From positions 1 to 64,000 of IMG/VR virus record IMGVR_UViG_3300005518_000003: a stretch of 64,000 nucleotides of DNA; one strand, given 5' to 3'. How positions within the stretch are numbered: the first letter of the stretch is position 1; each line of letters opens with the position of its first letter. This document shows positions 3,102-57,065 of the stretch, one piece after another. The notes beneath the pieces were generated by a model, which was given only the letters and a program-made list of their open reading frames with translations, was not told the origin of the DNA and made no database searches. A program made the translations under genes and the position numbers. The stretch comes from a virus.

Positions 3102-3674
3102 TTAGGTCAAAGAAGCGGTGACGGTGACGTTGATCGTGTCACCATTCACGGCCGGACGATCTCCGCCCGTGAAATTGCCCTCGCCGAGGAGCGTCCCCGT
3201 TGTTCCGCCTTTCGTCGAATTGTCGGCCATAAAACTTCCTGCGATTGTCACCGTCGCGTTGATCGAAAAGCTCGCCTTTGCGGCCGAATTGTCCACGGAA
3301 CCCGACGCGATCGTTCCTGGCATGAACGCGGGTCTCGTCGCGTTGGAGTATCCGGTGTCCTCTGCCCAGCCGGCGTGAGAGCCCATCGTGTCGGCGGCGG
3401 CGTACGTGTTGCCTGCGCCAGGCCCCGTAATGAGCCCCACGAACCACGAAGGCGCCGCGAGTCCCGTTTTTAGTGTCGCATCGAGATATTTGTTTCGTCC
3501 GGCCGTGACAACGAGGTTCTTGAAGTCATCGGCCCACTTGAGGTTGCCGTCCTTGTCGAAACACTCGACGTGGTAGTGGTGCTCGATGGTGACGGTAAGA
3601 TGTTGTTCTCCGCTTTTGGCCAGCTCGGCACCCATGCCCAAAAAGGCCTTCATCTTCTCGATGAAGCGGCTCAT
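3102..3674 (-). CDS. Putative virion fibre/spike-associated protein
   Basis: NLVVTAGRNKYLD...GDTINVT pattern typical of small phage fibre/collar proteins. Confidence 0.6.
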   Translation of the reverse strand: MSRFIEKMKAFLGMGAELAKSGEQHLTVTIEHHYHVECFDKDGNLKWADDFKNLVVTAGRNKYLDATLKTGLAAPSWFVGLITGPGAGNTYAAADTMGSHAGWAEDTGYSNATRPAFMPGTIASGSVDNSAAKASFSINATVTIAGSFMADNSTKGGTTGTLLGEGNFTGGDRPAVNGDTINVTVTASLT

Positions 3675-12700: not shown

Positions 12701-13291
12701 TCACGCGTGCCGGCGTCGACGGTGGCGAGCTCCGCCCTTTTTTGGTTTCGCAAGGACGGCCCACCCGATGATGCCAAGTCCGAGCACCGCCGCGCCGCCG
12801 AGAATCCACGGCGTGTAATCAGACTCCGTGGTCGTCCCGGTCGGTGGAACGGACACGGGAGTGATTCCGCCGCCACCGCCTTGAACAGGACCCGTTCCGT
12901 TGTGTGACTTCGTGTAGCCGACGCCACCGAGGTAGTCGGTCGCGACGTAGCCTTCTTTGCCGGAAAGCTCACCGCTCAAGACTTTGACGTGTGCCCAGTT
13001 GTGGCCACCGGCGTTGTAAACCATTTGCGCGTCCGTATCGACCGTATCGACCGGTTCGACGACGACGTTGTTGTTCGCGCCGTATCTGTTGTTGAAGCGA
13101 CCGATCTCGGCTCCGTTCGCTGTTTGACGAAGCGCCACCTGCGTCCCCGTGATCTCGTACGTGCCGGCAGGAACTTTTTCGCGAAGATTTGGATCCCCGA
13201 GAATGCCGAGACCCTCGTAGACGGACCCGAACCACGCCCCGAGACCAGCGGCGAGTTGAACTTCTTCGTGTTTGACGAGTTGCGTGTCCAT
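12701..13291 (-). CDS. SH3b-like domain protein with C-terminal TM anchor
   Basis: ALRQT...WAHVKV...EGYVATDYL SH3 pattern; TM followed by RHRRRR; GLG leader. Confidence 0.7.
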   Translation of the reverse strand: MDTQLVKHEEVQLAAGLGAWFGSVYEGLGILGDPNLREKVPAGTYEITGTQVALRQTANGAEIGRFNNRYGANNNVVVEPVDTVDTDAQMVYNAGGHNWAHVKVLSGELSGKEGYVATDYLGGVGYTKSHNGTGPVQGGGGGITPVSVPPTGTTTESDYTPWILGGAAVLGLGIIGWAVLAKPKKGGARHRRRRHA

Positions 13292-13301
13292 GTTCTGTCC
13301 T

Positions 13302-14384
13302 TTATGCAGGCGCGAGATGGCGCGGTCGAGATTCCTTGAGGGCCTTCCAAACGAGAAAGCCTCCTCCTCCGATCGTAGCTGCGATGGCAGTGCCGAGCAG
13401 CACCTTGCTTGTGGTGCTCATTCCCTGCGGAGGAGTCATCGGGGTCGGAGACGGAGATGGTTGCGGCTGCGGCTGTTTGATCTGCGTTCCAGCACCCGGT
13501 TCAACATACAACTGCGCGACCCAGCCAGCTCCGTGTGTCTGCGTTCCGACGCGCACGTAATCGATTCCGGCAAAATTCGGATCATTGTTCGGAGCTACGG
13601 TTTCGTCTTGCTTGACCATCCACTTGGGATCGGTCTCGACATCACCGAAGACGTACACATTTTCGCCGTTCTGAAGCGTTGCGATCGCGGTGGACTCGTA
13701 CTCCGGCTTCGCACGAAGAATCACCCCGGTACCTTTGATGTGGTAGTTCCCCGGCGTCGGATGTTCGTCGTATTCCATCCCGAGTCCGCGCTTTGACGGG
13801 CGGTAGTACGGATAGATGCCGACCCGCGCGCCTGGCGACGAAACCGGATTGACGGGACCCATCTGCGAGGCACCGTGTTCCGGCGAGCCAACTGGCCACA
13901 CCGGTCCCATTCGTTCGCTGCTTGGCATGTAGTAGGGATAGATCCCACCAGGGGCTCCAGCCGATGACGGACGAAACGATTCGATGTCTCCGAGCCCAGC
14001 GACACCGTAAAGACCCGTGATGAAACTGGCCGCGACGACGCAAACGAAGTACGCATGCGGCGAAGCTCGCTCACCCCACCATCCACCGCCTACGAATGCT
14101 GCACGCCATCCAGCTTGGAAAGGAAGCTTCGAGAGCGTGGCAACGACGTCGGAAGGAACCGGACCCGCGGGAGGCATCCACGAACACGATGCCGGCTCGA
14201 CGTAAACGTTAGGACCCCAAAACCAGGGCCAATCGAACCACGGCCCGCCACCGCGGAAGCGACGAAATCTACCCCCGTGGGAAACTGTATGATGAAATCC
14301 ACCATGCGGGTGTCCCCCACCGCCCATAGGTGGAGCGCCGAGTCCGATGATCGCACTTACGAGCTCGAGGTCTTGCGCGTTCAT
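13302..14384 (-). CDS. Multi-segment protein with SH3b-like domain and C-terminal TM anchor
   Basis: VILRAKP..IATLQNGENV..YVRV..GWVAQLYV; three GLG motifs; duplicated GIYPYY. Confidence 0.7.
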   Translation of the reverse strand: MNAQDLELVSAIIGLGAPPMGGGGHPHGGFHHTVSHGGRFRRFRGGGPWFDWPWFWGPNVYVEPASCSWMPPAGPVPSDVVATLSKLPFQAGWRAAFVGGGWWGERASPHAYFVCVVAASFITGLYGVAGLGDIESFRPSSAGAPGGIYPYYMPSSERMGPVWPVGSPEHGASQMGPVNPVSSPGARVGIYPYYRPSKRGLGMEYDEHPTPGNYHIKGTGVILRAKPEYESTAIATLQNGENVYVFGDVETDPKWMVKQDETVAPNNDPNFAGIDYVRVGTQTHGAGWVAQLYVEPGAGTQIKQPQPQPSPSPTPMTPPQGMSTTSKVLLGTAIAATIGGGGFLVWKALKESRPRHLAPA

Positions 14385-15250
14385 TCTTCGGGGTCGTCGA
14401 TCTCGAAGACCAACGCTCCTGCCACACGCCAGATGATGGCGGTTGGGAAATTGAGAAGAAATTGTTCTTCGGGCGAGAGGCCGCCTTCAAAAAACGGATT
14501 CGGTGCGGGAATTCGAACACGGCCTTCTTGCGAATCAGGATTCGTTTGCTGCACGCTCGCGTAGAACGCGATTCGGCACGGTCCCTGAAGACGAATGTCG
14601 AGTGCGTTCCAGTCGTGCGCATCGTCCCAGCGCGTTTTGAGATCGTAGAACGTATCGAGCTCACCCGTTACGCCCTCACCTGGTGGTTTTCCTCCGAGCG
14701 GAGGCGTGTACGCCGTGAGCTGCACGTAAAACGGCGTTGGTGTCGCAACGGTATTGAAGAGCAATCCAGGTCCAGCGGAATCGCGGAACGCGAGGTTCTG
14801 CTGATTTCCGCCGGTAAGCGGATCCATCCTTTGCTCTTGAAGTGGCGGACGACCATACGGTTCGTTCTTCCCCATTAGGCGCATGTGCCACGAGATATTT
14901 CCGTCCGGCAGCTTGAAATTCGGCGTTGTTACCCACTGCTCGACGACGCGCGGTCCCGCAGGAGGTCCTGTCACGTCGAGCCTGGTACCGAGCGACCAGC
15001 CCATGCGAAATCCGCGAAGCCAAACGTTGCACGCTTCCGGAAAATTCGCCGTGCAGAGCAAAAAGAGGAAACGGTTCGTCGGACCGTGGGTGACGAGCGC
15101 AGGCACACGAAGGCCAATCGATGACGTTCCGCCGTACGGATCGCCAGCGAGACCCTGCAATGCTTCGTCGATGCCGGTCGAGACGAGCTCGACTCGGCGT
15201 CTTGGAATCACCAGGCTTGGATATCGTCGGAGGTGAGCGACTGCGCCCAT
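14381..15250 (-). CDS. Putative capsid-associated structural protein
   Basis: Beta-rich soluble protein cotranscribed with the capsid candidate. Confidence 0.5.
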   Translation of the reverse strand: MGAVAHLRRYPSLVIPRRRVELVSTGIDEALQGLAGDPYGGTSSIGLRVPALVTHGPTNRFLFLLCTANFPEACNVWLRGFRMGWSLGTRLDVTGPPAGPRVVEQWVTTPNFKLPDGNISWHMRLMGKNEPYGRPPLQEQRMDPLTGGNQQNLAFRDSAGPGLLFNTVATPTPFYVQLTAYTPPLGGKPPGEGVTGELDTFYDLKTRWDDAHDWNALDIRLQGPCRIAFYASVQQTNPDSQEGRVRIPAPNPFFEGGLSPEEQFLLNFPTAIIWRVAGALVFEIDDPEE

Positions 15251-15258
15251 TCAGCCTC

Positions 15259-15927
15259 CTACGACTTGCACGCCGTGATGTAGCAGTCCGGAATCTGGAT
15301 TCCGCACATATCACGAAGTCGAAGCAGCGCTTCGCGATCCGTGATGTTGACGCCGTCGAACTTGTCCGTGTCGGGCGTAAGCGTTTTGAACGTCATCACG
15401 ACCGTGATTGGGAAGTCCGGGAGCTGGACACGCGCGAGAAAATCGACCTGGAGCTGCTGTTGGTACGTCATCACCCAGATGCCGTTTGGAAATCCGGGTC
15501 CTGGCGTTCCGGCGGCTTTCGCGAGCGTCGAGAGTGGCGTGAACTTCGATGCGATCGACGGCCGCGGCATGCCGACGACGTTGATCTTCGCTTCGATGCC
15601 GCTTTGGAGCGAAAAGAAGAAGTCGCTCTGCGGTTGAAGCACGTTCTGCGGCGTGCGGTCGCGTGTGATCGTGTACTCGATCTCCTCGATGATCGTGTCC
15701 GCGACGATCTTCACGTCGCTTCCGACTTCCGGATTCAGATTGCGATCCGGGTTGTCGAACGTCGTACGGACGTTGATGTAGTAGGGCACGAACGGAATGC
15801 CCTGCGCGCGCGCGAGTGCGAGTCGCGGATACCCGAGTGAGAGAAATCGGTAGATGTCCCTCAGCCAGTGATCGATCCCGCATGCCCCGGCGCAGTCGCC
15901 GAATCCCTTCTTGAGCTCGTCATTCAT
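15259..15927 (-). CDS. Putative minor/second capsid protein
   Basis: Alternating beta-strand pattern, strong codon bias, directly downstream of the capsid candidate. Confidence 0.5.
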   Translation of the reverse strand: MNDELKKGFGDCAGACGIDHWLRDIYRFLSLGYPRLALARAQGIPFVPYYINVRTTFDNPDRNLNPEVGSDVKIVADTIIEEIEYTITRDRTPQNVLQPQSDFFFSLQSGIEAKINVVGMPRPSIASKFTPLSTLAKAAGTPGPGFPNGIWVMTYQQQLQVDFLARVQLPDFPITVVMTFKTLTPDTDKFDGVNITDREALLRLRDMCGIQIPDCYITACKS

Positions 15928-15940
15928 GGGGTCTCTCGAC

Positions 15941-16001
15941 GCCTCAGCCCCTCGGCCTTTCGGCGTCGGGGCTTGGCGTAGCTAGCGCGGCTTTCGCCGC
16001 G
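15941..16001 (-). promoter_or_regulatory. Two GAAA-tetraloop hairpins downstream of the capsid gene
   Basis: CGCGGC-GAAA-GCCGCG and AGCCCC..GCC-GAAA-GGC..GGGGCU. Confidence 0.65.
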
Positions 16002-16007
16002 TCAGCG

Positions 16008-17390
16008 TTAGATGTTGACGAAGCCGCACTCGCACTCCGAGCAGAGTGCATCGCGCGCGTCCGCGTTGTTGCGGAGGAACGTCATGAGGTCGCCGTCGAG
16101 CTCGCGGCCCTTGACGAGCATCGAGAGCTTGAGGTCGCCCATCTTGTAGAAGGCGCGCTCCGCGAAGACCGCCTGCGAGTAGTTGACGATCGCCGCGGGC
16201 GGCACGTCGAGCGATTGCTCGAGCATGACCGGCGAGCCGCTGACCGTTCCGCCGAAGTTGATGTTCGTCGCGTCGACGATGAACGGAGGAATCACGCCGT
16301 TGCCCTGACGGCCCTGCGTGACCGAGAGGTAGTCGCGCATGATGTCGCCCTGGGTGTCGTCGACCTGCTGGAGGACGAGACCGATCGGGATGCCTGCGCC
16401 GATGATGTACGGCAAATCGAGCTTTCGGAACTCGCTGTTGCCGCGGAGCATGTGACGGAGGTCCATGCCGCCGTAGGTGACGGGCGCGAGCTCGAACGCG
16501 CGCGACGGACGGAATTCACCGACCGGTACGCCGCCGACCGTGAGCACGCCCTCGCGGATGAAGTCGATCTTGAGGAAGTCGAACGCCGTTCCGAGCGAGT
16601 CGTAGTAGTCGTTCGTGCGACGAATCTCGGCGAGAACTGCGTCCTCGCTGAGACCCGACGAGCCGTCCTGAGCGTTCGGCGGCATGTACGCCGTGTGACG
16701 GAGGATTTCGTCGAGGATGTTCCACTTCGTGCCGATCGCCCAGCGGAGATCGTACGCGCGCACGAGGTGCCACGCGACGTAGTTGGCCCACGCACCCCAC
16801 TGAAGGATGGCAGGACGCATGAACTGCGTCGGCGTCTGACCGTCGAAATTGTCACCGAGGGCTCCGTTCACGATGTCGGCGACGGTGAAGACATCGGGGC
16901 TCGGCGGCTTCGCTTGGCCGACGACCGGGTGCGTCCACGCGTTGCCGAGAATCGACCACGACTTCGGCTCGGGTTCGAGGTGAAATCCGATCGCGCACGC
17001 GAGCATGTGGGTGTTGAGCTCGCCGTTCTGCGGCATCGTCGATTCGACGAATGCCACACCTTCGACGCTCTTCGAATTTCCGAAGAGATCGATCTCGCTC
17101 GAGAAGTTCTTCTCGATCGCCTGGTCGGTGATCGGGCCGACGAGCGTCCAGCGCGTTTGATGGATCGTGTCCATCGCGTAGGACGCGCAGTCCATCGAGC
17201 TCTTGAGGAGGTTCGTGACGCCAACCGCGCCAAGACCCTTCTTCACGCCGCCTTCGTAAGAGCGGACCTTCTCGATGCTGATCGGCTCGCCAAGGCCGAC
17301 TTTCTTGATCTCGATCTCCCGCTTGATTTGGCGGAACTTCGGGCGGAACGGGTGTTTCGGAGTCGACGGTTTGGCAAGTGCGGTGTCCAT
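16008..17390 (-). CDS. Putative major capsid protein (non-HK97; jelly-roll suspected)
   Basis: Appears to have the strongest C/G third-position bias in the window, AGGAG RBS, flanking RNA hairpins, beta-rich, central in the structural cluster; fold not verifiable by eye. Confidence 0.55.
   Translation of the reverse strand: MDTALAKPSTPKHPFRPKFRQIKREIEIKKVGLGEPISIEKVRSYEGGVKKGLGAVGVTNLLKSSMDCASYAMDTIHQTRWTLVGPITDQAIEKNFSSEIDLFGNSKSVEGVAFVESTMPQNGELNTHMLACAIGFHLEPEPKSWSILGNAWTHPVVGQAKPPSPDVFTVADIVNGALGDNFDGQTPTQFMRPAILQWGAWANYVAWHLVRAYDLRWAIGTKWNILDEILRHTAYMPPNAQDGSSGLSEDAVLAEIRRTNDYYDSLGTAFDFLKIDFIREGVLTVGGVPVGEFRPSRAFELAPVTYGGMDLRHMLRGNSEFRKLDLPYIIGAGIPIGLVLQQVDDTQGDIMRDYLSVTQGRQGNGVIPPFIVDATNINFGGTVSGSPVMLEQSLDVPPAAIVNYSQAVFAERAFYKMGDLKLSMLVKGRELDGDLMTFLRNNADARDALCSECECGFVNI
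16437..16475. repeat. 39-bp exact direct repeat, copy 2
   Basis: Identical to 12096-12134. Confidence 0.95.
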
Positions 17391-17455
17391 GCTGTTCTCC
17401 TCTGCTCTCGTGGTTGCCGCAGCCGGGTCACGAGGTGCAGTTTGGTTTTTTCAAT

Positions 17456-17493
17456 GCCTCAGCCCCTCGGGCTTGCGCCGTTGGGGCTCTGGC
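17456..17493 (-). promoter_or_regulatory. GNRA hairpin upstream of the capsid gene, homologous to 15941-15977
   Basis: 15-bp exact match gcctcagcccctcgg and compensatory stem changes. Confidence 0.7.
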
Positions 17494-17510
17494 ACGCTAT
17501 GTCGAAGCGG

Positions 17511-19247
17511 TTACTCGGCCGCTTCGTCGTTGCGACGGTGTCTCGACGTTCCGGGGAACCGGAGCGAGGAGTTGTCCTCTTCCACCACGAGTCCGAGACC
17601 GCGCGCCGCGCTGTCGAGAACCTGCGGATGGAATTGTCCGAGCGTCGCGAAGCTGCCGCGATGCTTGGCGATGAGCTGATCGGCGTACTTGCGCTGATCC
17701 GGTGTCGCATGTCCTGCCGCATGCGCAGCGAGCACTTCGCGATTCTTTCGAAGCGCGACGTAGGCTTCTCCGTGCGAGCGTAGGACGTCCGTTGCTCCCG
17801 AAACGTCGCCGAGTCCACGGACTCCCACCGGAGCGTACGCGGAAACCGGAGGGCTTTGTGGCGTCGTCGGAACCATGATGCCCGGAGGCATTTGTTCCGG
17901 CGGAACTTGTGGCTGACGCGAAATCGCCGGAGGCGGCACGAATCCGCCTGGCGGGGTGTACGGGCCTTGATTCACGACGGGCGGATATCCTCCGCCCGGT
18001 GGAATCGTCGGATGCGGACCGCCTTGTGGAAGTTGCATTTGCGGCATCACGCTCGGCCCGGTTGAAGGACCGGACGGAATCATGCTGCGACATCCGCAAG
18101 AACCGCCGAGGCCAGGGTACTGACCGCAGGTCGAGCACGGGGCTCCGGCGAGACCGACCGCCGTGCGCTGTCCGATTTCTCCCGAGAAAAGCTTCTTCCC
18201 GGTCGAGTCGGATGCGCTGTCCTTGAAGAGGTACGCCGCGAGATCGTCGACGGCTTTTCCGACGAGACGAACGGCTGCGCCGAATCCGAAGAACTGAAGC
18301 GCGCTGCGCCCCATCGGCGATCGAATGAACTGCGCGACGACGAGCGGTGTTCCGGCCACGGCGACGCCCGCACCAACGCGCGGAAGGAAGTCGTCCATGA
18401 GCGGAGCTTCGATGAAGCGCATCGCGAGCGCTTGACCTTTGTCGTCCTTGCGTTCTCGCATCGTCACGAGACGATCGATCACGTCGGCAGCGGTGTAACC
18501 GATGGCGCCCGTGACGAGGCCGACGACGAGCTCCCAGCCAGTGACCGGGTTCTCCATCGCTCCGCGACGGGAGTGACGACGGCGACGGAGACGCTCACCC
18601 GTGATGTGTCCGACGAGGCGCGTGCGGTAGCGCTTGCCGTGCGACTTGCCTCCGCGGCGACGTGTGAAACGTCCGCGACGGGTGCGACGCACCTGGCGCG
18701 GGAACTCGCGCGCACGCGCGCGACGACGACGACCACCTCGACGGCGACGGCGGCGGCGCGGAGCTTCGGCTGCACGCGCGTAGCGGCGGCGACGGCGGCG
18801 GCGCGGAGCTTCTCGAGAACGACGTGCGCGACCTCGACGACGGCGACGGCGGCGCGGAGCTTCCTCACGCGATTGACGACGACGACGACGACCACCCTTG
18901 CGACGTTTGCGGGCCATGTGCACGGTCTCCTTGGAATGAGAACGGCGTCTCGCCCGCACGCGAGATCGTTTTCTTCGCTTGAGTGAACCGCGACGGCGGC
19001 GCTTCGTCAAGCCCTCTTCTTTCGCATGACGACGGCGACGGCGTTTGCCGGCACGACGCTTTGCAGCTTTCCCGCCGAAACCAGCCTTGATCTGCGCAGG
19101 AGTCAGCCTGCGTCGTTTTCCTCTTCGCGCCATCTTTCTGCCTCGTTTTCGTGGGGTGTCTGCATGAAGGACCACCGCCCGCCTCGAAGCAGCCTGCTCT
19201 GGCTCGGAACGCGCTCGCGAGAGAATCTCTCGATAGTCGACGGGCAT
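17511..19247 (-). CDS. Protamine-like Arg-rich core protein fused to membrane and Pro-rich segments (alternative start 19133)
   Basis: ~190 aa of poly-Arg blocks with EAPRRRRRRR repeats, then ENPV, hydrophobic helices, a CxxC motif, a Pro-rich linker and GLG motifs. Confidence 0.75.
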   Translation of the reverse strand: MPVDYREILSRARSEPEQAASRRAVVLHADTPRKRGRKMARRGKRRRLTPAQIKAGFGGKAAKRRAGKRRRRRHAKEEGLTKRRRRGSLKRRKRSRVRARRRSHSKETVHMARKRRKGGRRRRRQSREEAPRRRRRRRGRARRSREAPRRRRRRRYARAAEAPRRRRRRRGGRRRRARAREFPRQVRRTRRGRFTRRRGGKSHGKRYRTRLVGHITGERLRRRRHSRRGAMENPVTGWELVVGLVTGAIGYTAADVIDRLVTMRERKDDKGQALAMRFIEAPLMDDFLPRVGAGVAVAGTPLVVAQFIRSPMGRSALQFFGFGAAVRLVGKAVDDLAAYLFKDSASDSTGKKLFSGEIGQRTAVGLAGAPCSTCGQYPGLGGSCGCRSMIPSGPSTGPSVMPQMQLPQGGPHPTIPPGGGYPPVVNQGPYTPPGGFVPPPAISRQPQVPPEQMPPGIMVPTTPQSPPVSAYAPVGVRGLGDVSGATDVLRSHGEAYVALRKNREVLAAHAAGHATPDQRKYADQLIAKHRGSFATLGQFHPQVLDSAARGLGLVVEEDNSSLRFPGTSRHRRNDEAAE

Positions 19248-19322
19248 GACGGTGTTCCCACGTCACCCGCACGTAACGCTTGGGAGAAGTCTACGCGCAG
19301 ATCGAGAGATTACGCAACAAGG

Positions 19323-19838
19323 TCACGGAACCACGATTCCGCGGTCATCGACGATGCATCCGTCCGGCAGCTCGATCCGATAGAACTGCTCCGAGGTCTT
19401 TCGACGCCAAAAGGAATAGAGCACCGCGGGTTTCTTGAACGCTCGGCTCTTGAATGGATAGAGAAGAAGCTGCGTGAGATTCTTCGCCTTGTTGAATTTA
19501 TGGTGAAAGAACCCCGGATGCTTTGTGCCTGCTCGGTCGTAGTAGATCTCGTTGATCTCTCCGAGCTTGTGCCACGTGGAAATATTTTCTGGCGGAAGAT
19601 CGATTCCGCCTTCGAACACGGTTGCGCTGCGACCAAAATAATCTGAACCTTCGTCGCTCTCTGTCTTTCCACGATCGAACTCACCGATCAGCAAGCTGCA
19701 CGTGGGCCAGTCTTCACCACTCTCGTCGTAGAGCATCGCCGCGTCGCGAGCCGGCTTGACCCTCTTACTCCCGCTACCGAGACCGATTCCCGGAGCGCGT
19801 AGGTTGATCTCGATCTTGCGTCCCATGCAGATCAGCAT
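19323..19838 (-). CDS. Hypothetical virion-cluster protein
   Basis: 171-aa ORF with N-terminal GIGLG. Confidence 0.6.
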   Translation of the reverse strand: MLICMGRKIEINLRAPGIGLGSGSKRVKPARDAAMLYDESGEDWPTCSLLIGEFDRGKTESDEGSDYFGRSATVFEGGIDLPPENISTWHKLGEINEIYYDRAGTKHPGFFHHKFNKAKNLTQLLLYPFKSRAFKKPAVLYSFWRRKTSEQFYRIELPDGCIVDDRGIVVP

Positions 19839-19844
19839 GGAGCC

Positions 19845-20681
19845 TCACTTCGCTCGACGACTCGCCCACCAAGCTTTGATGTCGTCTTTGTACACAAAGC
19901 CGAGAACACCCGCGGTGACGACTGTTCCGCCAAGCATCCACCAACCCCACGGGAACTCCGGCCCGGCCTTTGGCGTAGTGCATCCGCCAGCCACGAACTT
20001 CTGCGCTTCGAGAAGATCGTCGCGCGCCTTCAAATCTTCCTTCGACCAGGGCGCGTTCGGATTCTGGATGTGATAGTCGACGATTTTGTTGTAGTCCGCA
20101 TGCAATCGAATGAGCTCGCGATCACATTCGATCTTCGAAAGAATGTCGTCGATGACGAGCGACGCGAAGTAGATCAAAGCGATGGCGATCGCTGTAACCG
20201 CAAGCATCTGCGCGATGACGGCAACGATCATCACGGGGATGAGCACCTCGATGTTTCCCGTCGAGTTGTTTTTCATCTGCGTGGCGTCAGCCGGCGTTGG
20301 CGTTTTGATTCCGCGTCGCTTCGCAATAATCTGAAGCGTACGAGCCAGCGTATCTGTCGGATTGTCCGAGCCGCCAGCGCTGATATTTTTGTCGTTCGCG
20401 AGCTTCGCGTTGATCGCACTCGAGACCATGAGCGTGATGAAGTCTTGCTTCGAAGGGTTGTCGTTCGCGATCCACTTTTTGGCGGTGGCTCTTGCATTCG
20501 CGGAGGCGAACGCCTGATCCCACGAGCGGCCCTGTACTTGTGCCCAAAACTGTTTGATGAGTACGTACGGATTGAGCGAAAACGCAGGAAGTTTGAGCGC
20601 TGCGGTGACGTCGTCGATGGGTGCGCCAAGGCCCACGATGCGAAGTGCTTTCTGAAAATCTTCGTAGCGTACGAGGGTCAT
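19845..20681 (-). CDS. Membrane protein (internal and C-terminal TM)
   Basis: GLG leader; long hydrophobic stretch; WGWWMLGGTVVTAGVLGFVY. Confidence 0.7.
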   Translation of the reverse strand: MTLVRYEDFQKALRIVGLGAPIDDVTAALKLPAFSLNPYVLIKQFWAQVQGRSWDQAFASANARATAKKWIANDNPSKQDFITLMVSSAINAKLANDKNISAGGSDNPTDTLARTLQIIAKRRGIKTPTPADATQMKNNSTGNIEVLIPVMIVAVIAQMLAVTAIAIALIYFASLVIDDILSKIECDRELIRLHADYNKIVDYHIQNPNAPWSKEDLKARDDLLEAQKFVAGGCTTPKAGPEFPWGWWMLGGTVVTAGVLGFVYKDDIKAWWASRRAK

Positions 20682-21565
20682 CGGCTTCTCACCTTTCGAA
20701 TGACGACGGCAGCGAGAGCCGACGCAGCGACGATACCACCGCCGACCACGGCCGCCTGCTTGTTCGTGAGCTTCGGAAGTGAGGGCAGATCGGGAAAGAA
20801 ATCGCCAAGCTCACCGAGACCACGAACGAGACCGCGAATCGGCTTCGCGAGCTGCGGTGCTGCGGCTTGGACGCCCTGACCGACGTTATACCAAACCTGT
20901 TCTTGCGGATCCGGACCGAGCACCATCTCGCTCGGAAGTTGATGGTACTGGCCGTCACTTCCAAGACCAAGCACCGGTAGTGCTCCGATTCCGACGAACT
21001 CGGCTTGAAGACCCGCGTACGCCGGATCCTTCCACGGGTTCATGCGTGTCTCACGCGACGCCTTCGCCTTTTCACCCGCCGTGAAGCGCGGCGTGGTCGC
21101 ATCGAGTGGAAACCATTTCCCATCTTCGAGTTTCACTTCGCAAATCACGTGCTGTTGATGCTCCGACCCGAAGAACTGGCGAACAATCTCAACTTCGAGT
21201 CCCGACGCCGCGCAAAGCGACGCGAGTGCCGTCACGAAGCCATCGCAATCCTCGATCGGAATGCACGCCAAGGCCCCTTCAACGCAGAGCGTGATCGGCG
21301 CGGCTTGGATCAACTCCGTGCCCGGTGGATCGTGCGTGTACCCAATGCTTCGTTTGCAATGGTTGAAGTGCGCGGTCGCTTTCTCTTTGTTCGTTCGCGG
21401 AAACATCGCTTGGCGAAGGATGTTGCCCGCGAAGCTGCGAAAAATTGGCATGGGAGCAGCCTCCCGAACCTTTTCGCAGATTTTGTGCAGCGACTTTTGG
21501 ATCCCTTCCTCGCCGTCCGGATACGACTCACGAAGGTACGGAACGCCAGCGGAGGAGGTGTTCAT
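20678..21565 (-). CDS. Transglutaminase-like (papain-fold) cysteine protease with C-terminal TM
   Basis: Y..DP.G.E, EDCDG (Cys), QHVICEV (His), WFPLDAT (Asp) triad order. Confidence 0.85.
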   Translation of the reverse strand: MNTSSAGVPYLRESYPDGEEGIQKSLHKICEKVREAAPMPIFRSFAGNILRQAMFPRTNKEKATAHFNHCKRSIGYTHDPPGTELIQAAPITLCVEGALACIPIEDCDGFVTALASLCAASGLEVEIVRQFFGSEHQQHVICEVKLEDGKWFPLDATTPRFTAGEKAKASRETRMNPWKDPAYAGLQAEFVGIGALPVLGLGSDGQYHQLPSEMVLGPDPQEQVWYNVGQGVQAAAPQLAKPIRGLVRGLGELGDFFPDLPSLPKLTNKQAAVVGGGIVAASALAAVVIRKVRSR

Positions 21566-21568
21566 CGA

Positions 21569-21961
21569 TCAGTCCTGAATGCACATATACGGGAAGTTCG
21601 GCATTCCCGTAGGAACGGAGTGATATCCCGGAGGACACGGATTCGCTTTCGGGTTGGAAAGATTCTGCGCGAGCTGACTCGCAACATTTGCAAGATTGAC
21701 GGGTTGCAATTGCGGCGGCGGCTGCGGTGGTGGCGTCGTATCGACCGGCTTGACGTTTCCAGGCGGACCGGTTGTCGTCGGCGTCGATCCAGGAGGAAGC
21801 GGTTGCTTTCCGCTCGCGATGTCCTCGGTCGTCGATTTCTTCGTAAGGTAGTTCGTGAGGAGAACGGCGACGGTCGTTGTTATCGCGGCTGTTGCCCCGG
21901 CAATAAGGAGCTGCATCCCCGTGCTCTCGACCGGATTTCTTCGCGCTCTTCGCATCACCAC
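21569..21961 (-). CDS. Small membrane protein
   Basis: RRARRNPV, then TM, then Pro-rich tail. Confidence 0.65.
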   Translation of the reverse strand: MVMRRARRNPVESTGMQLLIAGATAAITTTVAVLLTNYLTKKSTTEDIASGKQPLPPGSTPTTTGPPGNVKPVDTTPPPQPPPQLQPVNLANVASQLAQNLSNPKANPCPPGYHSVPTGMPNFPYMCIQD

Positions 21962-22533
21962 ACCGGAAGCGGGTTGGCTGGGAGCAGAAACCCAATCTGC
22001 GAAGCGATGGCTTGAACGCTCTTATAGAGCGCGTTGATCAACTCCGAAGAGAGCTGGAGCCCTTTCATCGCGTTCACCCATGCGGCAACGTCGTTCAAGA
22101 GCTGTTGGTTATTCTGCTGGTTCGGCTGACCGTACGCTTGCGGATTCGGCGCGGGCGGTGGTGTTCCGCCTCCTCCGCCTCCGCCTGGTGGAAGAGTTTT
22201 TCCACCGCCACCCATTTGCGCTGAACTTGGACGCAGCGCGAAGTAGAGGCCCGTCCCTAGGATGGCTGCACCGCCGAGACCACCGAGGATGTAGAGCGTC
22301 GATTTTTTCATGACCGGATTGCTGCGTGCACTTCTTCGGCGTGCGCGTCGACGTTTTACGTAGCGACGAGAATAATCGCGTCGATCAAGGCTTGCAGATC
22401 CACGCGAACCGTGAGGAAGCCATCGCAGAGCTTCTCGTTTGTTCCTCGCTTGGACGTAAAAGTACGACGACCTGCTTTCCCCAGGATAGCGGTAGGTCAC
22501 CTTGTACGATTTGAAATCCCACATCGCGGGCAT
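21955..22533 (-). CDS. Basic membrane protein
   Basis: Arg-rich segment, RSNPV, TM LYILGGLGGAAILGTGLYFAL. Confidence 0.65.
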   Translation of the reverse strand: MPAMWDFKSYKVTYRYPGESRSSYFYVQARNKREALRWLPHGSRGSASLDRRDYSRRYVKRRRARRRSARSNPVMKKSTLYILGGLGGAAILGTGLYFALRPSSAQMGGGGKTLPPGGGGGGGTPPPAPNPQAYGQPNQQNNQQLLNDVAAWVNAMKGLQLSSELINALYKSVQAIASQIGFLLPANPLPVW

Positions 22534-22597
22534 CCCTCTTTCACGCACGACGCGCCCGCACGAGCGCCTGCATGTCGTCAGCATACGACGAGGTGGG

Positions 22598-23698
22598 TCA
22601 CTTCGACAATTCGGCCAATTTGTTGATGGTGGTGGCGATCTTTATAACGACGCTCAGCGCAGAGAGTGCGGGGCCGAAAGCCAAGGAAAACACTGTTCCG
22701 ATCGTGGCCATGAACATCTCGAAGACCATCCCAGCATCGACCACTTTGATGCATGGATTTACCTTCTCGTCGTGCGACTCGAACATGTCGATCAGTCCCG
22801 CGATCATCATTCCGCCAACAGACGCGTGGAGCATCGTGAGCGATTTTTGCGGAAGAGGTTTCCCTTCGCTGTCGGTCGTCGGAAGCGTTTTGTCGTTTTT
22901 CTTTGCGAGGTCGCGTGCAAATTGTGCGAGCCGATCGCGCGTCCACGCGGGCATTGCGAACATAAAGAGCGAAGAAACATCACCTGGAAGAGAAAACGGC
23001 AACGTGATCCCGTATTTCTTCAACGCGGTGAGCACACCTCCGAAGTCTCCGCTGTCCAGTCCTTTTTTGATGCTGGCCTCCATCGAAGCGACGACCGCTG
23101 CGTTGAATGCTCCTGGATCTGCGTGAGGATCGATCGCGTTCCCAGCGTAGCGAATCTGTTTTCCTTTGTCTCGCGGGTCGCATTGGAGATCGACTCCACA
23201 CGTCTTGATGATGTCAGGACCGCGATAGACCGTGTTGAAGAACGGGTAGGCCCAATCGTTTCCGAGCTGAACAACCGCTGCGGCCAACGTCTGGCAATGC
23301 GAATGACTCGCAAGTTCGTCGGTCGTGAATTTATTTTCTTTGTTGTAGAAGGCCGCCAGAATGAGATCGATCACTTTTACGCCGCCGTGCGTGAAGATTT
23401 TTCGAAACGCATCGGCTTGAAGAAAAATCGGCGTGCCATTCCCGAGTAGATCCGCCATGGCCGTCAGCCGTTTCGTAAGCGCTGCGATCTCGATTCCTCG
23501 AAGCACGGACACTTGTGCGTACGTCGAGCTCACGGCGAGCATGCTCTCGATCGCGGATTTTTTCTTTGGCCTTGTCGCCGCGTAGACGATTCCGCCGAAG
23601 AGAGCAACGCCAGCACCGATGCCACCGTAAACCGTGAGCTTCGGGTGCTTGTGATAGAAGCGCTTCGCACTCCTCTTGACGTCGCTGACGAGTTTCAT
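22598..23698 (-). CDS. Membrane-anchored helical protein
   Basis: N-terminal TM and hydrophobic C-terminus. Confidence 0.65.
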   Translation of the reverse strand: MKLVSDVKRSAKRFYHKHPKLTVYGGIGAGVALFGGIVYAATRPKKKSAIESMLAVSSTYAQVSVLRGIEIAALTKRLTAMADLLGNGTPIFLQADAFRKIFTHGGVKVIDLILAAFYNKENKFTTDELASHSHCQTLAAAVVQLGNDWAYPFFNTVYRGPDIIKTCGVDLQCDPRDKGKQIRYAGNAIDPHADPGAFNAAVVASMEASIKKGLDSGDFGGVLTALKKYGITLPFSLPGDVSSLFMFAMPAWTRDRLAQFARDLAKKNDKTLPTTDSEGKPLPQKSLTMLHASVGGMMIAGLIDMFESHDEKVNPCIKVVDAGMVFEMFMATIGTVFSLAFGPALSALSVVIKIATTINKLAELSK

Positions 23699-24006
23699 GA
23701 CCGAGTCGCTGAAATCACACCACCGCCGCCACCGTTACTTCCGCCGCCACCGATCTGATTTCCGTGTTCATCGACCCACGACACGTTTGGAGAGTATGGA
23801 GCGAACGCTGCGTAGACTCCCGGAACAGCAGTGGGAGAGATCGTCGTTACGTTTGGCTTGGCTCCATCACCGCTTGTCGGTGGTCTCGTTCCTTGGGGAG
23901 AGACGATCTGCTTCGGCCTAGTGGCGTAGTAGACCGCCCCGCCGATGCCAGCCGCACCTGCGAGGAGTCCAACGATCCACGCTGCCTTCTTTGCACCCTT
24001 CGTCAT
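23695..24006 (-). CDS. Small N-anchored membrane protein
   Basis: AAWIVGLLAGAAGIGGAVYYATRPK. Confidence 0.65.
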   Translation of the reverse strand: MTKGAKKAAWIVGLLAGAAGIGGAVYYATRPKQIVSPQGTRPPTSGDGAKPNVTTISPTAVPGVYAAFAPYSPNVSWVDEHGNQIGGGGSNGGGGGVISATRS

Positions 24007-24018
24007 CCGGCAACGATA

Positions 24019-24207
24019 TCACTGGTCGGACACCGCCACCAAGATCGCGATCAGAGTGAGCGGCCAAAACGCGGAAACGAACATCGCTCCGATCGTTACT
24101 TCGACCAATTCTTCCGTCGTCGCGCGGTGTTTCCAGGGACGGATCACGGCCGCGCAGAGGCCCATTGATCCAGTAAACCCGAGAAGCCAGATGTGAAAGA
24201 TTGTCAC
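24019..24207 (-). CDS. Small two-TM protein
   Basis: Two hydrophobic helices (holin-like size). Confidence 0.45.
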   Translation of the reverse strand: MTIFHIWLLGFTGSMGLCAAVIRPWKHRATTEELVEVTIGAMFVSAFWPLTLIAILVAVSDQ

Positions 24208-24209
24208 GA

Positions 24210-25721
24210 TCAGAAGCCTCCCCAACCTCCTTCGCCTGAACCCGTCCCTGGATTTTGCGGAGGCTGCGGTGGTTGCTGCGGTTGAAGTTGTTGCATCGGC
24301 GGCGGCTGTTGAAATTGCGGTGTCTGCTCTTCTTCTTCGGGCGATCCGGCGAGACCACGACGCTTGGTGGCTTGAGCTTCGAGCCATGCAGCTCCCGCAT
24401 CCATAAGCCTCTGCGACGGACGCGGATTCATGAGAAGCATCCCGAGCGGATCGACCTTGCCCGTTTCCTTGTCGCGAACGAGCTTCGCCTTGGTTCCGTC
24501 GTCCCACACCGAGGGCAGCTCGGTGATCTGGTACGGGAGATCGTCCTCTTCCTTCACCTCGGGCGGTGCAGGAAGCATTGGAACGGTCGTCGTCTCTTCC
24601 GGCTCTTCGGCCGCAAATCGTTCGCGCATCTTTTCACCGAACGCGACGTAGCGATCGAAAATCTTGAAACCCTGATCCATCGCCGTAAGCGGATCCATCT
24701 GCGTTGACGACGTTGGTGGAGCGCCGAGACCGGCTGCTTTGACGGCAGCGATCATCGCGGTCGCAAGACCTTCGACGGTCATCTGCGTGATCGGGGTTTG
24801 ACCCGGAGGAGCTCCGACACCCGGTCGATGTTGTGGTTGTGGTGATTGCGGTTGCTGCCTCAGCCGCCGATTCTCTTCTTCGAGCGCAGCGAGACGCTTC
24901 TCGAGATCGGATTGCTGCGGCGGCGGAAACCCGTATTGAGGTGGGTAGCCGTAGGGCTGGTAGCCGTACGGAGCCGGAGGTTGCGGAGGTTGCTGCGGCT
25001 GCTGTTGCTGCGGCTGCTGCGGTGGTTGTCCAGGAGCAGCGGGGAGCCGGGGAATTTGGCCGAAGCCCGGTTGCGGGCCGTACTGGCTCGCCATTCGCTG
25101 TTGCCACTGGGCTTGACGAAGCGCGTTGATCTCGCCTTGCGACTGAAGCGAGATGTAGCCGTTGACGATGTACTGTCCGTTCGCTTTCCAGACGAACTGG
25201 AGCTCGTAGCGAGCCGGACCGCGCGCGATGTTGTGGTAGTAGTCCTCGACGTACTGTTTGATCGCCGTTGTCGGCGACATCTCTTGGTTGCCAACGACCG
25301 CGCTCGCCTCGAACGCATACCCAATGCTCTGACGCGGCGGCGGATCGATTCGAATCACGTTGACGACGACGTCATACGCAGATCGTCCGTGCGCCTCGAG
25401 CCATTCGAGAACTTCGGGCCAAAGAACTTCTACTTCTCGGCTCGTCCACTTCGGAGCTCCGTCTGCACTCGCATCGAATCGATCAGGGATGGCTCCTGCT
25501 TTTCCGCTCGGTCTTCCAGGAGTTTTCGGAGCGCCAACACCCGTTTGAGTTGGACCGCGACGCCTGCCCGCGGGATGTGTTTTTTCTTTCTCTTGAGGTG
25601 GAGGCGTTGGAGGAGGAACGACCGGTGCTGTTTCAACTGGTACACCATTCGCTCCTTCCGGCGGCGGTTCCCAATCTGGTCCCTGACCCGGCGTTGCCGG
25701 ATCTTGCGTTTCATTGTCCAT
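24210..25721 (-). CDS. Pro/Gln-rich protein, putative scaffold/assembly protein
   Basis: Low-complexity P/Q tracts, short coiled coil, GVGAP x2, GLGAP and GLAG motifs. Confidence 0.65.
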   Translation of the reverse strand: MDNETQDPATPGQGPDWEPPPEGANGVPVETAPVVPPPTPPPQEKEKTHPAGRRRGPTQTGVGAPKTPGRPSGKAGAIPDRFDASADGAPKWTSREVEVLWPEVLEWLEAHGRSAYDVVVNVIRIDPPPRQSIGYAFEASAVVGNQEMSPTTAIKQYVEDYYHNIARGPARYELQFVWKANGQYIVNGYISLQSQGEINALRQAQWQQRMASQYGPQPGFGQIPRLPAAPGQPPQQPQQQQPQQPPQPPAPYGYQPYGYPPQYGFPPPQQSDLEKRLAALEEENRRLRQQPQSPQPQHRPGVGAPPGQTPITQMTVEGLATAMIAAVKAAGLGAPPTSSTQMDPLTAMDQGFKIFDRYVAFGEKMRERFAAEEPEETTTVPMLPAPPEVKEEDDLPYQITELPSVWDDGTKAKLVRDKETGKVDPLGMLLMNPRPSQRLMDAGAAWLEAQATKRRGLAGSPEEEEQTPQFQQPPPMQQLQPQQPPQPPQNPGTGSGEGGWGGF

Positions 25722-27427: not shown

Positions 27428-29377
27428 CTACCGGGAACGCACCTTGTGAAGCTTTTTGTCGGCGAACGAATAGAACTCGCCTTCGCCCATCACCACGTGG
27501 TCGATGAACGCGATTCCAGAGGCTTTGCAAGCATTTTTCATTGCTTTGGTCAGGTCGGCATCGGCATCCGAAAAATCCGCTCCGCCGCTCGGATGGTTGT
27601 GCAGGATCGCAAGCCCTTTCGCGCCGCGATCGATGGCCGGCTTGAGGACGTCAGCAGGATCGACGGCAACGCGATCGCGCTGACCTACGTGAACGATGGC
27701 GACCCCGCGGAGGTCGGAATGGATATCGAGCAGGATCGCGCAGAGGTGCTCCTTGTCCTGCTTCGAAGCCCACGGATGCATCATGTTGTAGATGTCGCGT
27801 GAATTCTTGATCGGACCGATTTGTTGCGCGACCTCGCGAATCTCTCGAAAGTCATCCGCGTTGCGCTCGACCTTCACGAACGGAATTCCATCCGTCACCT
27901 CAACGGGATTCTCACCCACGTGTTTTGCATGTGGCCAGTGCTGTCGCGCGCTTGCTCGTACTTGATCTTCAGATTCACCACGAATGATGTTGATCGAGTA
28001 CCCGTGACGATCACGCGCAACCGCTTCCCACTCTTGGCGGACTTCGTCGTACGCGATCTCTACGGTCACGACCTTTCGCTCGCGTCCCTCGGCCGCCCCG
28101 CCACATCCGTGCTCGCAGCCGCATTCGTTCGCTTCACGCGAGATGCCACCAGGAACACCTCGTTGCGGATCCAACTTAGACAAAGCCTCGGCATTGCTCG
28201 GGAGCTTCCTCACCCGCTTACCAGTGTTTGGCCAGTGATAGAGCCCCTTCTTGTAAAAGAGCTCGCGCTCGGTGTAGCTGCCGTCATCCCGCGGCGTGTA
28301 CGTCCGAACGACCCATTTCTTTTTGTCGTCCCAATACTTCACGAAGTGCGTCGCTGAGAACATTCCACGATGAGCTTCATGGCGAAGCGCATCGTCGATG
28401 TTGTTGAAGTCGCGCGCTTCACGTGGCCCGCTCTCTGGAGGAAGTAGTGGAGGAGTCTCCGGTCCCGAGTGGAGAATGAGATGCTCCGATTTCATCTTGC
28501 CTTTAGAGCCGTCGCGCCAGAGAACGGTGATCTTTTCGCCTTCGACGGAGATCACGACGCCGGGATTGAGTTTCTTTGCAAGCCTTGGAAGAACGCCAGG
28601 CGCAAGCTGCACGTCGTCACCGCGTTGGAAATCGCGCGCCTGGACTGGGTTCTCGCGGAGCAACCGATCGACGCCCGACTTCGCCTGTCGCAACGCCTCA
28701 CCACGTGTGGTCGCACCCCAATGACCTCCACGAACGATGGCCGACCACCACGTGGTTCCGTCGTCCATGAGATATTTTTCGAGTCGAATGTTCTCGCCGT
28801 GGTAGTCGACCGTCTCGCGTTGTTGGATTCGATCGCGCGCCTCGACGGGGTTCTCGCGAACAAACGAGACGCTCGGACGCACCGCAGGCTGCGAATTCGC
28901 AAAAGCTTCTGCTTCGCCTTTCGTCTTGAACGGGCCGTGATACTCGCTGCTCCGATCACTTGGTCTGCGGCCGTATGCGTACCAGACCGTGCTCCCGTCT
29001 TTCGGACGCTCTGATGGATGCATCTGATCACTCGAAACGATTCGCCAAGGAATCGGTTGCCTCCATGCCGGCTGAGGACCGCGACGAGGATTCTCTCGCG
29101 CACCCGGACGTCGGATCAGTCCAATGTGCACCGCGTAGTCGTACGCGCTCTCGTGCATCTTTCGTGGATTGAGGAAGCCGTCTTGAATCGCTTCGCCGAC
29201 TTGATCATCCCACCACTCAATGATGGTCGCGTCGTTCTTCGCGTTGATCAGCTCGACGTGTGCTCGGTCACGCTCCTCCCAGGTCGAGAGCCGCGTGTCA
29301 CTGAGAGACAATTCGGGCACGGAATGACGTCCACGGCGACGGGCTTCTTCGGCGGCGGCGGGATTCATTCGAGGCAT
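27428..29377 (-). CDS. Modular polyprotein-like protein with C-terminal RadC/JAB domain
   Basis: KEHL..ILLD, HNHPSG..FSDAD..LT..M...GI.FIDHVV JAB motif; upstream modules separated by ENP motifs. Confidence 0.85.
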   Translation of the reverse strand: MPRMNPAAAEEARRRGRHSVPELSLSDTRLSTWEERDRAHVELINAKNDATIIEWWDDQVGEAIQDGFLNPRKMHESAYDYAVHIGLIRRPGARENPRRGPQPAWRQPIPWRIVSSDQMHPSERPKDGSTVWYAYGRRPSDRSSEYHGPFKTKGEAEAFANSQPAVRPSVSFVRENPVEARDRIQQRETVDYHGENIRLEKYLMDDGTTWWSAIVRGGHWGATTRGEALRQAKSGVDRLLRENPVQARDFQRGDDVQLAPGVLPRLAKKLNPGVVISVEGEKITVLWRDGSKGKMKSEHLILHSGPETPPLLPPESGPREARDFNNIDDALRHEAHRGMFSATHFVKYWDDKKKWVVRTYTPRDDGSYTERELFYKKGLYHWPNTGKRVRKLPSNAEALSKLDPQRGVPGGISREANECGCEHGCGGAAEGRERKVVTVEIAYDEVRQEWEAVARDRHGYSINIIRGESEDQVRASARQHWPHAKHVGENPVEVTDGIPFVKVERNADDFREIREVAQQIGPIKNSRDIYNMMHPWASKQDKEHLCAILLDIHSDLRGVAIVHVGQRDRVAVDPADVLKPAIDRGAKGLAILHNHPSGGADFSDADADLTKAMKNACKASGIAFIDHVVMGEGEFYSFADKKLHKVRSR

Positions 29378-56732: not shown

Positions 56733-57065
56733 TCACCGAAGTCTCTTCGCGAGTTGCCAGCCGAGCAAACCGCCGCCAATAATTCCGGCGCCGGCAGCGA
56801 TGAGGCTGTACTTCACAACGGCGGAACGCGCAGCCTGCGCGCCCGTTTCTCCGGCCATGGCAGCTTGTTGATGGACGTAGTCTTTCGAGCTGTTGATGAC
56901 GCTCTGAGCGAGGCTATCGAGCTGCGGTTTCACCTGGGCGATGATCTGGGCTCGGATGTTCGCTTCGAGTCTAGCAATCTCGCTATCGACGGTCTTGCGA
57001 ACGTCGAGCAGATCTCCGGGTGAGAGCCCGAGACCGATGCGCGCGGCGAGCTCGGCGTCGTTCAT
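56733..57065 (-). CDS. Small C-anchored membrane protein with GLG leader
   Basis: MNDAELAARIGLG...SLIAAGAGIIGGGLLGWQLAKRLR. Confidence 0.65.
   Translation of the reverse strand: MNDAELAARIGLGLSPGDLLDVRKTVDSEIARLEANIRAQIIAQVKPQLDSLAQSVINSSKDYVHQQAAMAGETGAQAARSAVVKYSLIAAGAGIIGGGLLGWQLAKRLR

Follow-up and report, generated by a model that had tools for sequence, protein, structure and literature searches.

Conserved Gly-hydrophobic-Gly sites in the virion proteins of an undescribed soil virus lineage and a membrane-anchored transglutaminase-like enzyme that may process them

The window analysed here, the first 64 kb of the 78,563-bp virus record IMGVR_UViG_3300005518_000003 (G000), carries a minus-strand block of structural genes (12.2–27.4 kb; 17 ORFs) whose products share a short motif, G-phi-G, in which phi is usually Leu and more rarely Phe, Met, Val or Ile. 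The motif is not a chance pattern; it is specific to the virion block, has been conserved throughout a large virus family and stands where variable leaders and linkers end. The same block encodes an enzyme of the transglutaminase-like superfamily with an intact, conserved Cys-His-Asp triad (gene 20678; genes and their products are named by lower coordinate in the window, Table 1). From these sequences G-phi-G is tentatively read as the processing code of the virus family, cut by the module's own transglutaminase-fold cysteine protease, a reading to which we give somewhat less than an even chance. An initial annotation of this DNA had proposed an adenovirus-like maturation system acting at GLG sites; that interpretation is partly supported.

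The GxG peptides listed in that annotation are all present in the genes and at the positions it named, and its claim that they are concentrated in virion proteins holds. The block contains 18 GLG where 3.49 are expected (sd 1.87; 0/2000 whole-protein shuffles reach 18), and the rest of the window (14,152 residues) contains four where 5.75 are expected. For the broader pattern G[LIVFM]G the counts are 29 in the block versus 12.4 expected from within-protein shuffles, and 16 versus 17.9 in the rest. Local richness in Gly and Leu was ruled out as the cause, as the enrichment persists when shuffling is confined to windows of 15, 30 or 60 residues (18 GLG versus 4.3, 3.9 and 3.7 expected, respectively). 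Only GLG (z 7.7) and GGG (z 7.1, from poly-Gly runs) are enriched among the 20 possible G-x-G triplets in the block. In co-oriented ORFs of 37 non-redundant related loci GLG is again in excess (164 versus 75.5 expected; z 10.5), accompanied by GFG (z 5.9), GVG (z 4.7) and GMG (z 4.3). Placement is also non-random, with a motif starting at residues 5–20 in 6/17 block ORFs versus 5/116 ORFs elsewhere in the genome (Fisher p 5.6e-4). The 19 GLG sites are encoded by 12 different 9-mers, with Leu codons (CTC/CTT) matching normal genome usage, which rules out a DNA-level explanation and places the signal at the protein level. About four of the counted copies lie inside predicted transmembrane (TM) helices (12701 residue 171, 21955 residue 102, 22598 residue 26, 23695 residue 20) and, given that location, are not to be read as sites.

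A basic or hydrophobic residue usually stands before the motif, which is often followed by Ala-Pro-Pro or adjoins a folded domain directly downstream. Leaders, 10–19 aa long, end in G-phi-G and often run from acidic to hydrophobic; the genes bearing them have either a purine-rich, Shine-Dalgarno-like stretch before the start codon or a start that overlaps the previous stop. A lipoprotein or Sec signal reading of these leaders was ruled out by eye, as they have no hydrophobic core and positions -3 to -1 are wrong for a lipobox; a Cys follows the motif only in some 15259 orthologues.

Two of the sites lie in the N-terminal arm (N-arm) of the major capsid protein candidate (16008), which has at least 168 homologues, on contigs of 60–82 kb, and a family of 191 clusters at 50% identity, 89 of them with E <=1e-30. 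The N-arm is variable among 120 homologues, yet both sites are kept: G-x-G is found at site 1, R-[RYK]-[VI]-V-G-x-G-x-P-P-[DN], in 113/120 and at site 2, [RK]-x-G-[LF]-G-[SAD]-phi-phi-D, in 108/120, and some homologues have a third tandem copy. Conservation extends to distant clusters, where G[LIVFM]G occurs among the 75 N-terminal residues of 65 of the 78 full-length representatives, almost always in the context [RK]-x-phi-G-phi-G and often followed by (A)-P-P. The predicted structure is a beta-sandwich (pLDDT 78.7) preceded by a low-confidence arm. Its fold matches are weak (Z <=5.7) and nearly all to jelly-roll capsid proteins [SGIV, 5.7; HCIV-1, 5.6; PRD1/PR772 P3, 5.2–5.4 with 160–168 residues aligned; also PBCV-1, Faustovirus and papillomavirus L1]; none of the fold searches (Foldseek against PDB and BFVD; VIA, wide and second look) produced a confident match, and there is no sequence match in PDB, Pfam or PHROGs. 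With matches this weak, any kinship with the double jelly-roll capsid proteins of the PRD1-adenovirus lineage would be tentative, and 'adenovirus-like' can be used only as an analogy of mechanism. A small membrane protein (11877-12218, minus strand) contains a ~35-aa copy of the capsid protein (YGGMDLRHMLRGNSEFR...), and this copy matches capsid homologues in 37/37 related loci.

Beyond the capsid protein, the initial annotation's expectation that the sites would be conserved in homologues is borne out for part of the set. In the 15259 family (33 orthologues) the leader varies from 10 to ~60 aa, with little sequence conservation and one to three G-phi-G, the last of which is always immediately before the conserved domain. 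The 13302 leader keeps phi-phi-G-[LF]-G in 7/7 full-length or N-terminal homologues, and G202, before the SH3-like domain (a weak SH3_3 match in Pfam), is invariant. The public gene call for 13302-14384 (P0145, 202 aa) begins at Met159; its homologues show conservation over the full 360-aa ORF, GLG leader included. The single orthologue fetched for 12701 (L037, 43% identity) keeps both N-terminal sites, and GVGAPP and GLGAPP of 24210 are kept in several of eight orthologues, in several of which the first site comes after a basic stretch. Conservation fails for GIGLG of 19323, where 21 orthologues have no motif at that place, for GLG 130-132 of 13302, and for residues 56, 479 (G-phi-P in relatives) and 551 of 17511. 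Across the 23 orthologues of the latter, only residue 321 and, loosely, residue 379 are kept, and residue 321, in a conserved hydrophobic segment, looks structural.

The protein of gene 20678 was correctly recognised in the initial annotation as a C-H-D triad protein with its own membrane anchor: Cys107 (in DCD), His139 (QxH) and Asp155 do not vary among 18 sequences, the most divergent of which has 26% identity, and a TM helix lies near the C-terminus. It is a member of the transglutaminase-like superfamily (papain-like architecture) and a core gene of the module. It matches PF01841 with E 1.7e-6 (28.7 bits versus a curated cut-off of 23), as do 16/18 homologues (best E 3.9e-9), and the best fold match of the model (residues ~16-185) is 3kd4_B (Z 11.0, rmsd 3.6, 137 aligned; Foldseek E 3.7e-4 against 3kd4), followed by factor XIII (Z 9.8), PNGase (9.3), TG2 (9.1), PeiP (8.1), LapG (7.6) and PeiW (7.3). 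The domain is found 3–5 kb upstream of the capsid gene in 17/17 informative relatives, i.e. related loci with at least 5.5 kb upstream of that gene.

The adenain-type and C39-type identities considered earlier for this enzyme were not upheld. Searches gave no Pfam match to adenain or other clan CE families (Peptidase_C5, C57, Ulp1-like) at E up to 0.01, or at E up to 1 for 18 homologues, and the 50 best fold matches are all transglutaminase-like with no clan CE structure, although absence from this list does not exclude the fold. The catalytic order, Cys-His-Asp, also differs from that of adenain (His, Glu, Cys). There is no PF03412 (C39) match, and the protein has a single C-terminal TM helix with no ABC exporter fusion. 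For the BTLCP family no Pfam match was obtained among the 18 homologues at E up to 1, the likeness being structural only (LapG, Z 7.6).

Despite pLDDT values under 50, two glycines of the enzyme's linker, G194 (FVGIG) and G231 (VGxGV), are invariant in the 18 homologues, while GLG 200 and GLG 249 are kept in close relatives only. In relatives of ~500 aa (P0137-P0143, L037) the enzyme is fused to a homologue of the next gene's product (19845), and BLAST aligns the 19845 leader (ALRIVGLGAP) with the internal fusion junctions (MRVVGAGA, GGLGAP, FAGLGA). The motif thus marks the N-terminal boundary of the 19845 protein, whether this is fused to the enzyme or separate. A complex prediction for enzyme residues 1-186 with capsid N-arm residues 1-75 scored 0.00 and is uninformative either way.

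In one enzyme orthologue (L003:4942-7245, plus strand) an intein (Hint PF01079 plus LAGLIDADG_3 PF14528) is inserted exactly at the catalytic Cys (GD-C...SN-C-DD). Inteins tend toward conserved functional sites, and this insertion was counted for the processing reading. A papain C1-like protein (Q-G-x-x-G-S-C) is encoded downstream of the structural genes in some relatives (L002:18837-19667, L005:16897-17829 and L006:17036-17965, all plus strand); it was ruled out as the family's common protease, being absent from this genome.

Table 1 Motif-bearing and associated features in the window
Feature	Coordinates	Strand	Product or residues	Details
Transglutaminase-like Cys-His-Asp enzyme	20678..21565	(-)	295 aa	PF01841; catalytic domain ~1-185; disordered linker 185-267; C-terminal TM helix ~270-290; basic tail RKVRSR
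Enzyme triad codons	21245-21247; 21149-21151; 21101-21103	(-)	Cys107; His139; Asp155	
Enzyme linker sites	20813..20992	(-)	GIG 192-194; GLG 200-202; GQG 229-231; GLG 249-251	20984-20992; 20960-20968; 20873-20881; 20813-20821
Major capsid protein candidate	16008..17390	(-)	460 aa	Basic N-arm, then beta-sandwich (jelly-roll-like) body from ~residue 73
Capsid site 1	17289-17297	(-)	GLG 32-34	N-arm
Capsid site 2	17229-17237	(-)	GLG 52-54	N-arm
Conserved virion protein	15259..15927	(-)	222 aa	10-aa leader MNDELKKGFG (15898-15927)
Tail-anchored protein, SH3-like domain	13302..14384	(-)	360 aa	Leader MNAQDLELVSAIIGLG (14337-14384)
13302 internal site	13779-13787	(-)	GLG 200-202	Before SH3-like domain
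Tail-anchored protein	12701..13291	(-)	196 aa	Leader ending in GLG 16-18 (13238-13291); second GLG 27-29 (13205-13213)
Membrane protein	19845..20681	(-)	278 aa	Leader MTLVRYEDFQKALRIVGLG (20625-20681); start overlaps stop of enzyme gene
Pro/Gln-rich coiled-coil protein, scaffold-like candidate	24210..25721	(-)	503 aa	
24210 sites	25533-25541; 24813-24821; 24723-24731	(-)	GVG 61-63; GVG 301-303; GLG 331-333	Each followed by AP
Protein with Arg-rich (protamine-like) N-terminal part and hydrophobic domain	17511..19247	(-)	578 aa	Five G-phi-G
Conserved protein	19323..19838	(-)	171 aa	GIGLG 17-21 (19776-19790), an insertion peculiar to this genome
Tail-anchored protein	56733..57065	(-)	110 aa	Leader MNDAELAARIGLG (57027-57065); adjoins SLT gene (57277-58170)
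Protein outside block	3102..3674	(-)	190 aa	Leader MSRFIEKMKAFLGMG (3630-3674)
Protein ending in RadC-type JAB domain, rival protease candidate	27428..29377	(-)	649 aa	PF04002, E 2.3e-28
Intact JAMM motif	27560-27601	(-)	HNHPSGGADFSDAD	Within JAB domain

In the proposed maturation pathway, virion proteins would be synthesised in precursor form, carrying short leaders at the N-terminus, a basic N-arm in the case of the capsid protein, or polyprotein-like linkers, and would be cut at G-phi-G during or after assembly on a viral membrane by the membrane-anchored Cys107-His139-Asp155 protease. The protease would also cut its own linker and, in fused relatives, the junction to the next membrane protein. 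Hydrophobic P2 residues are a classic preference of papain-like clefts, and the scissile bond is accordingly placed, provisionally, after the second Gly, although an adenain-type cut between phi and Gly would also be possible.

Several observations were counted for processing of the sites: the GLG-specific enrichment of the virion block, in the window and in the 37 related loci, and the fact that the motif is the best conserved feature of otherwise variable, low-confidence N-terminal segments. Tandem copies with short basic spacers in some relatives, as in multi-site propeptides, favour cutting. The invariant triad, the presence of the domain in all 17 informative relatives and the two invariant linker glycines were counted for the enzyme as the processor, as was the lack of any other recognisable phage protease among the ORFs scanned (Pfam, 50 larger ORFs; small ORFs not scanned). 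LapG and DvhG, through endoproteolysis at small residues, set a precedent for a site-specific protease with a transglutaminase fold.

Other points weigh against this reading. Both cleavage and its assignment to this enzyme are inferred, and a short motif conserved in terminal arms is just as compatible with a docking role. Sites in 19323, in 17511 (three of five) and in the middle of 13302 lack conservation, and in the 14381 family the equivalent segment, LQG-phi-GGDP, sits in a conserved stretch and may be structural. The transglutaminase-like superfamily also includes cross-linking enzymes, amidases and phage cell-wall isopeptidases, and PeiP and PeiW appear among the fold matches of the enzyme. 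Finally, a second conserved putative peptidase, the RadC/JAB protein with its intact JAMM motif, adjoins the block.

If G-phi-G were instead an uncut docking or virion-targeting tag, which we consider rather unlikely, the enzyme would have another role and the short extended peptide would insert its Leu or Phe, flanked by glycines, into a pocket on the capsid protein, on a scaffold or on the membrane machinery, so recruiting unrelated proteins. The presence of the motif, sometimes in several copies, in the terminal disordered arms of many unrelated virion proteins suits such a tag, the Gly/Leu/Ile-rich cargo-loading peptides of encapsulins provide a parallel, and conservation cannot tell binding from cutting. 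A tag accounts less readily for two copies on the capsid protein itself, for a motif that stands exactly where conserved domains begin, however long or short the leader before them, for its position at a gene fusion/fission junction behind a protease-fold domain, and for the poor conservation of sequence N-terminal of it, as in a discarded propeptide. The variable-length leaders and the fusion/fission at the motif favour cutting over docking.

Cutting by a different protease, either the RadC-type JAB metalloenzyme (27428) or a host enzyme, is unlikely; the transglutaminase-like protein would then be a virion-associated cell-wall peptidase used in entry, or a cross-linker. JAB/JAMM enzymes typically cut after Gly-Gly tails, this one has an intact motif and is conserved beside the block in 4/4 related near-complete or complete genomes, the phage lysins PeiP (Z 8.1) and PeiW (Z 7.3) are among the structural matches of the transglutaminase-like enzyme, and the capsid and scaffold leaders of staphylococcal phage 80-alpha are removed by a host Cys protease (Prp). 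Set against this, RadC-type JAB domains are common in phage replication and anti-defence contexts, with, to our knowledge, no established protease activity, and the gene here lies at the border with the replication block. An SLT lytic transglycosylase is already present in the genome, and conserved G-x-G is found in the linker and fusion junction of the transglutaminase-like enzyme and not in the JAB protein. A lack of any shared function, the copies being flexible hinges or glycine-zipper-like packing in membrane-associated, linker-rich proteins, would fit the ~4 copies in predicted TM helices, 17511 residue 321 in its conserved hydrophobic segment and the non-conserved sites, but is very improbable given that the residue enriched between the glycines is Leu alone (in relatives also Phe, Met and Val) rather than Ala, Ser or Pro, that enrichment survives local-composition shuffles, that N-terminal placement is non-random (p 5.6e-4) and that positional conservation reaches very distant homologues.

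Processing by the transglutaminase-like enzyme would have its closest functional likeness in adenoviruses, whose protease has pIIIa, pVI, pVIII, pVII, p-mu and pTP as substrates (PMC5409498), and in mavirus, whose major capsid protein is cut at GG↓X and GY↓G (arrow, scissile bond), removing a positively charged tail (PMC6048507). In both, a viral Cys protease acts on several capsid or core precursors at glycine-based sites, for which a counterpart is proposed here, and this virus has a basic capsid arm bounded by G-phi-G together with an Arg-rich, core-like protein. Unlike adenain, the enzyme is transglutaminase-like, membrane-anchored and ordered Cys-His-Asp, and the host is bacterial. The adenoviral site rule invoked in the initial annotation is at best a partial match. 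The (M/I/L)xGG↓x form is not fitted, while G-x-G resembles the GX↓G type and G-phi-G fits its Gx↓G core; here a hydrophobic residue is obligatory between the glycines and none stands at the adenoviral P4. At capsid site 1 a hydrophobic residue stands immediately before the first Gly (V/I/L in 115/120), whereas the adenoviral rule has it two residues before, and at site 2 a hydrophobic residue before the first Gly is absent.

The LapG cleavage site in LapA is Ala-Ala, and DvhG, which has a TM helix, is a membrane-bound protein (PMC10990149). Both share the superfamily fold and Cys-His-Asp triad with the enzyme described here, and DvhG also the TM helix, but they act on periplasmic cellular adhesins, not in virus assembly, and at a different site motif. 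PeiW and PeiP, pseudomurein endoisopeptidases of archaeal phages, are likewise phage-encoded with a transglutaminase-like fold (Z 7.3-8.1); these, however, are cell-wall lysins with neither a TM anchor inside a block of virion genes nor a motif in structural proteins. C39 peptidases, papain-like with a Cys-His-Asp triad, remove amphipathic leaders of 15-30 aa that end in two small residues. The leaders found here, 10-19 aa and ending in G-phi-G, resemble these but have a hydrophobic residue inserted between the glycines and belong to virion proteins, and the enzyme has no ABC transporter fusion. HK97 gp4, T4 gp21, phiKZ gp175 and Prp remove N-terminal propeptides of several head proteins at a shared short motif as the particles mature. 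Prohead proteases are serine proteases of the herpesvirus-assemblin fold (Prp being a host enzyme), with Glu- or Phe-based motifs, whereas the ORFs scanned here yielded neither a protease of this kind nor an HK97-fold capsid, portal or terminase. Encapsulin cargo peptides resemble G-phi-G in being short Gly/hydrophobic terminal motifs common to unrelated proteins bound for one shell, but they bind an HK97-fold shell uncut, while here the motif is on the shell protein too, and the module includes an enzyme with a protease fold.

Virion maturation by a site-specific viral protease is known; what is most likely new is the enzyme family, in an undescribed virus lineage. If the processing reading is true, it would add a new enzyme family to the few viral maturation proteases, in a group without recognisable head, tail or packaging genes of known phages, and would give the glycine-directed maturation known from adenoviruses, virophages and giant viruses a counterpart in bacteria. 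The mature termini of a dozen virion proteins could then be predicted from the motif, which would also flag virion proteins in hundreds of related, otherwise unannotatable metagenomic genomes.

The virus belongs to an uncultured family of ~70-80-kb soil/peat bacterial viruses, an undescribed lineage without recognisable tail or packaging genes. The first 90 bases of the record are repeated at its end, indicating a complete genome, circular or terminally redundant. ORFs of the structural block are tightly packed, many with TM helices and one extremely Arg-rich, and the only Pfam matches within it are Transglut_core (20678-21565) and the weak SH3_3 (13302-14384); ten ORFs of 12701-21955 gave zero family matches in PHROGs. 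Outside the block are phage-type replication genes (primase-polymerase/VapE, helicase, ThyX, PD-(D/E)XK nuclease, RadC; Pfam) and an SLT lytic transglycosylase (PF01464, E 1.3e-27, 57277-58170), the latter implying that the host is a bacterium with peptidoglycan. A Pfam scan of the 50 larger ORFs found no terminase, portal, packaging ATPase, HK97-type capsid, tail protein or prohead protease, and P-loop proteins in this set are limited to an AAA_24 protein (36926-37885), the helicase (45522-47147) and the primase/VapE protein. Searches of GenBank phages, PDB sequences and the ESM Atlas gave no match to the capsid protein or to the enzyme.

Related loci, mostly from forest-soil and peat metagenomes, came from an alignment-based scan of viral contigs, a single-protein scan there having given no matches. 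A scan of genome contigs found two short metagenome-assembled genome (MAG) contigs only (Chloroflexota, Polyangiaceae), too short for naming a host. Leu codon usage across the window is unusual for 58% G+C (CTC 47%, CTT 26%, CTG only 11%) and may be a clue to the host. One relative (L028; Ga0209275_10000001, 148,729 bp) is ~2x the usual genome length of the family and could represent either an assembled concatemer or a larger relative.

The JAB protein adjoins the structural block in the same four related near-complete or complete genomes and has a motif make-up of its own, with four ENP and zero G-phi-G, versus three G-phi-G and zero ENP in the transglutaminase-like enzyme; this reciprocity is only suggestive. 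The pattern [E/S/R]-N-P-[V/R/T], chosen after seeing the data, occurs eight times in 12.2-29.4 kb against 0.94 expected. The four ENP copies split the RadC/JAB protein into modules, and in 17511-19247, 21569-21955 and 21955-22584 an ENP-type motif follows basic stretches just before TM helices. Taken more broadly and still more tentatively than the processing reading itself, the family may be a widespread, undescribed ~70-80-kb soil/peat lineage with tailless, membrane-containing particles, a jelly-roll-like capsid, a protamine-like core protein and a membrane-anchored transglutaminase-fold cysteine protease reading a G-phi-G code, possibly a convergent bacterial counterpart of the glycine-directed system of adenoviruses and virophages, with [E/S/R]-N-P and the JAB metalloenzyme as a putative second code.

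Collagen-like Gly-X-Thr repeat proteins, possible fibres, are encoded downstream of the capsid module in relatives (L002:14040-14768, L004:16096-17349 and L005:14398-14982, all plus strand), with no counterpart seen in the window. Two proteins encoded outside the block also carry a motif-bearing leader. At the corresponding position the L037 orthologue of 3102 (75% identity) reads FFGAG, and in 56733-58170 (minus strand) the SLT gene lies beside two small ORFs, one of which encodes the GLG-leader protein 56733, in what may be a lysis or entry cassette.

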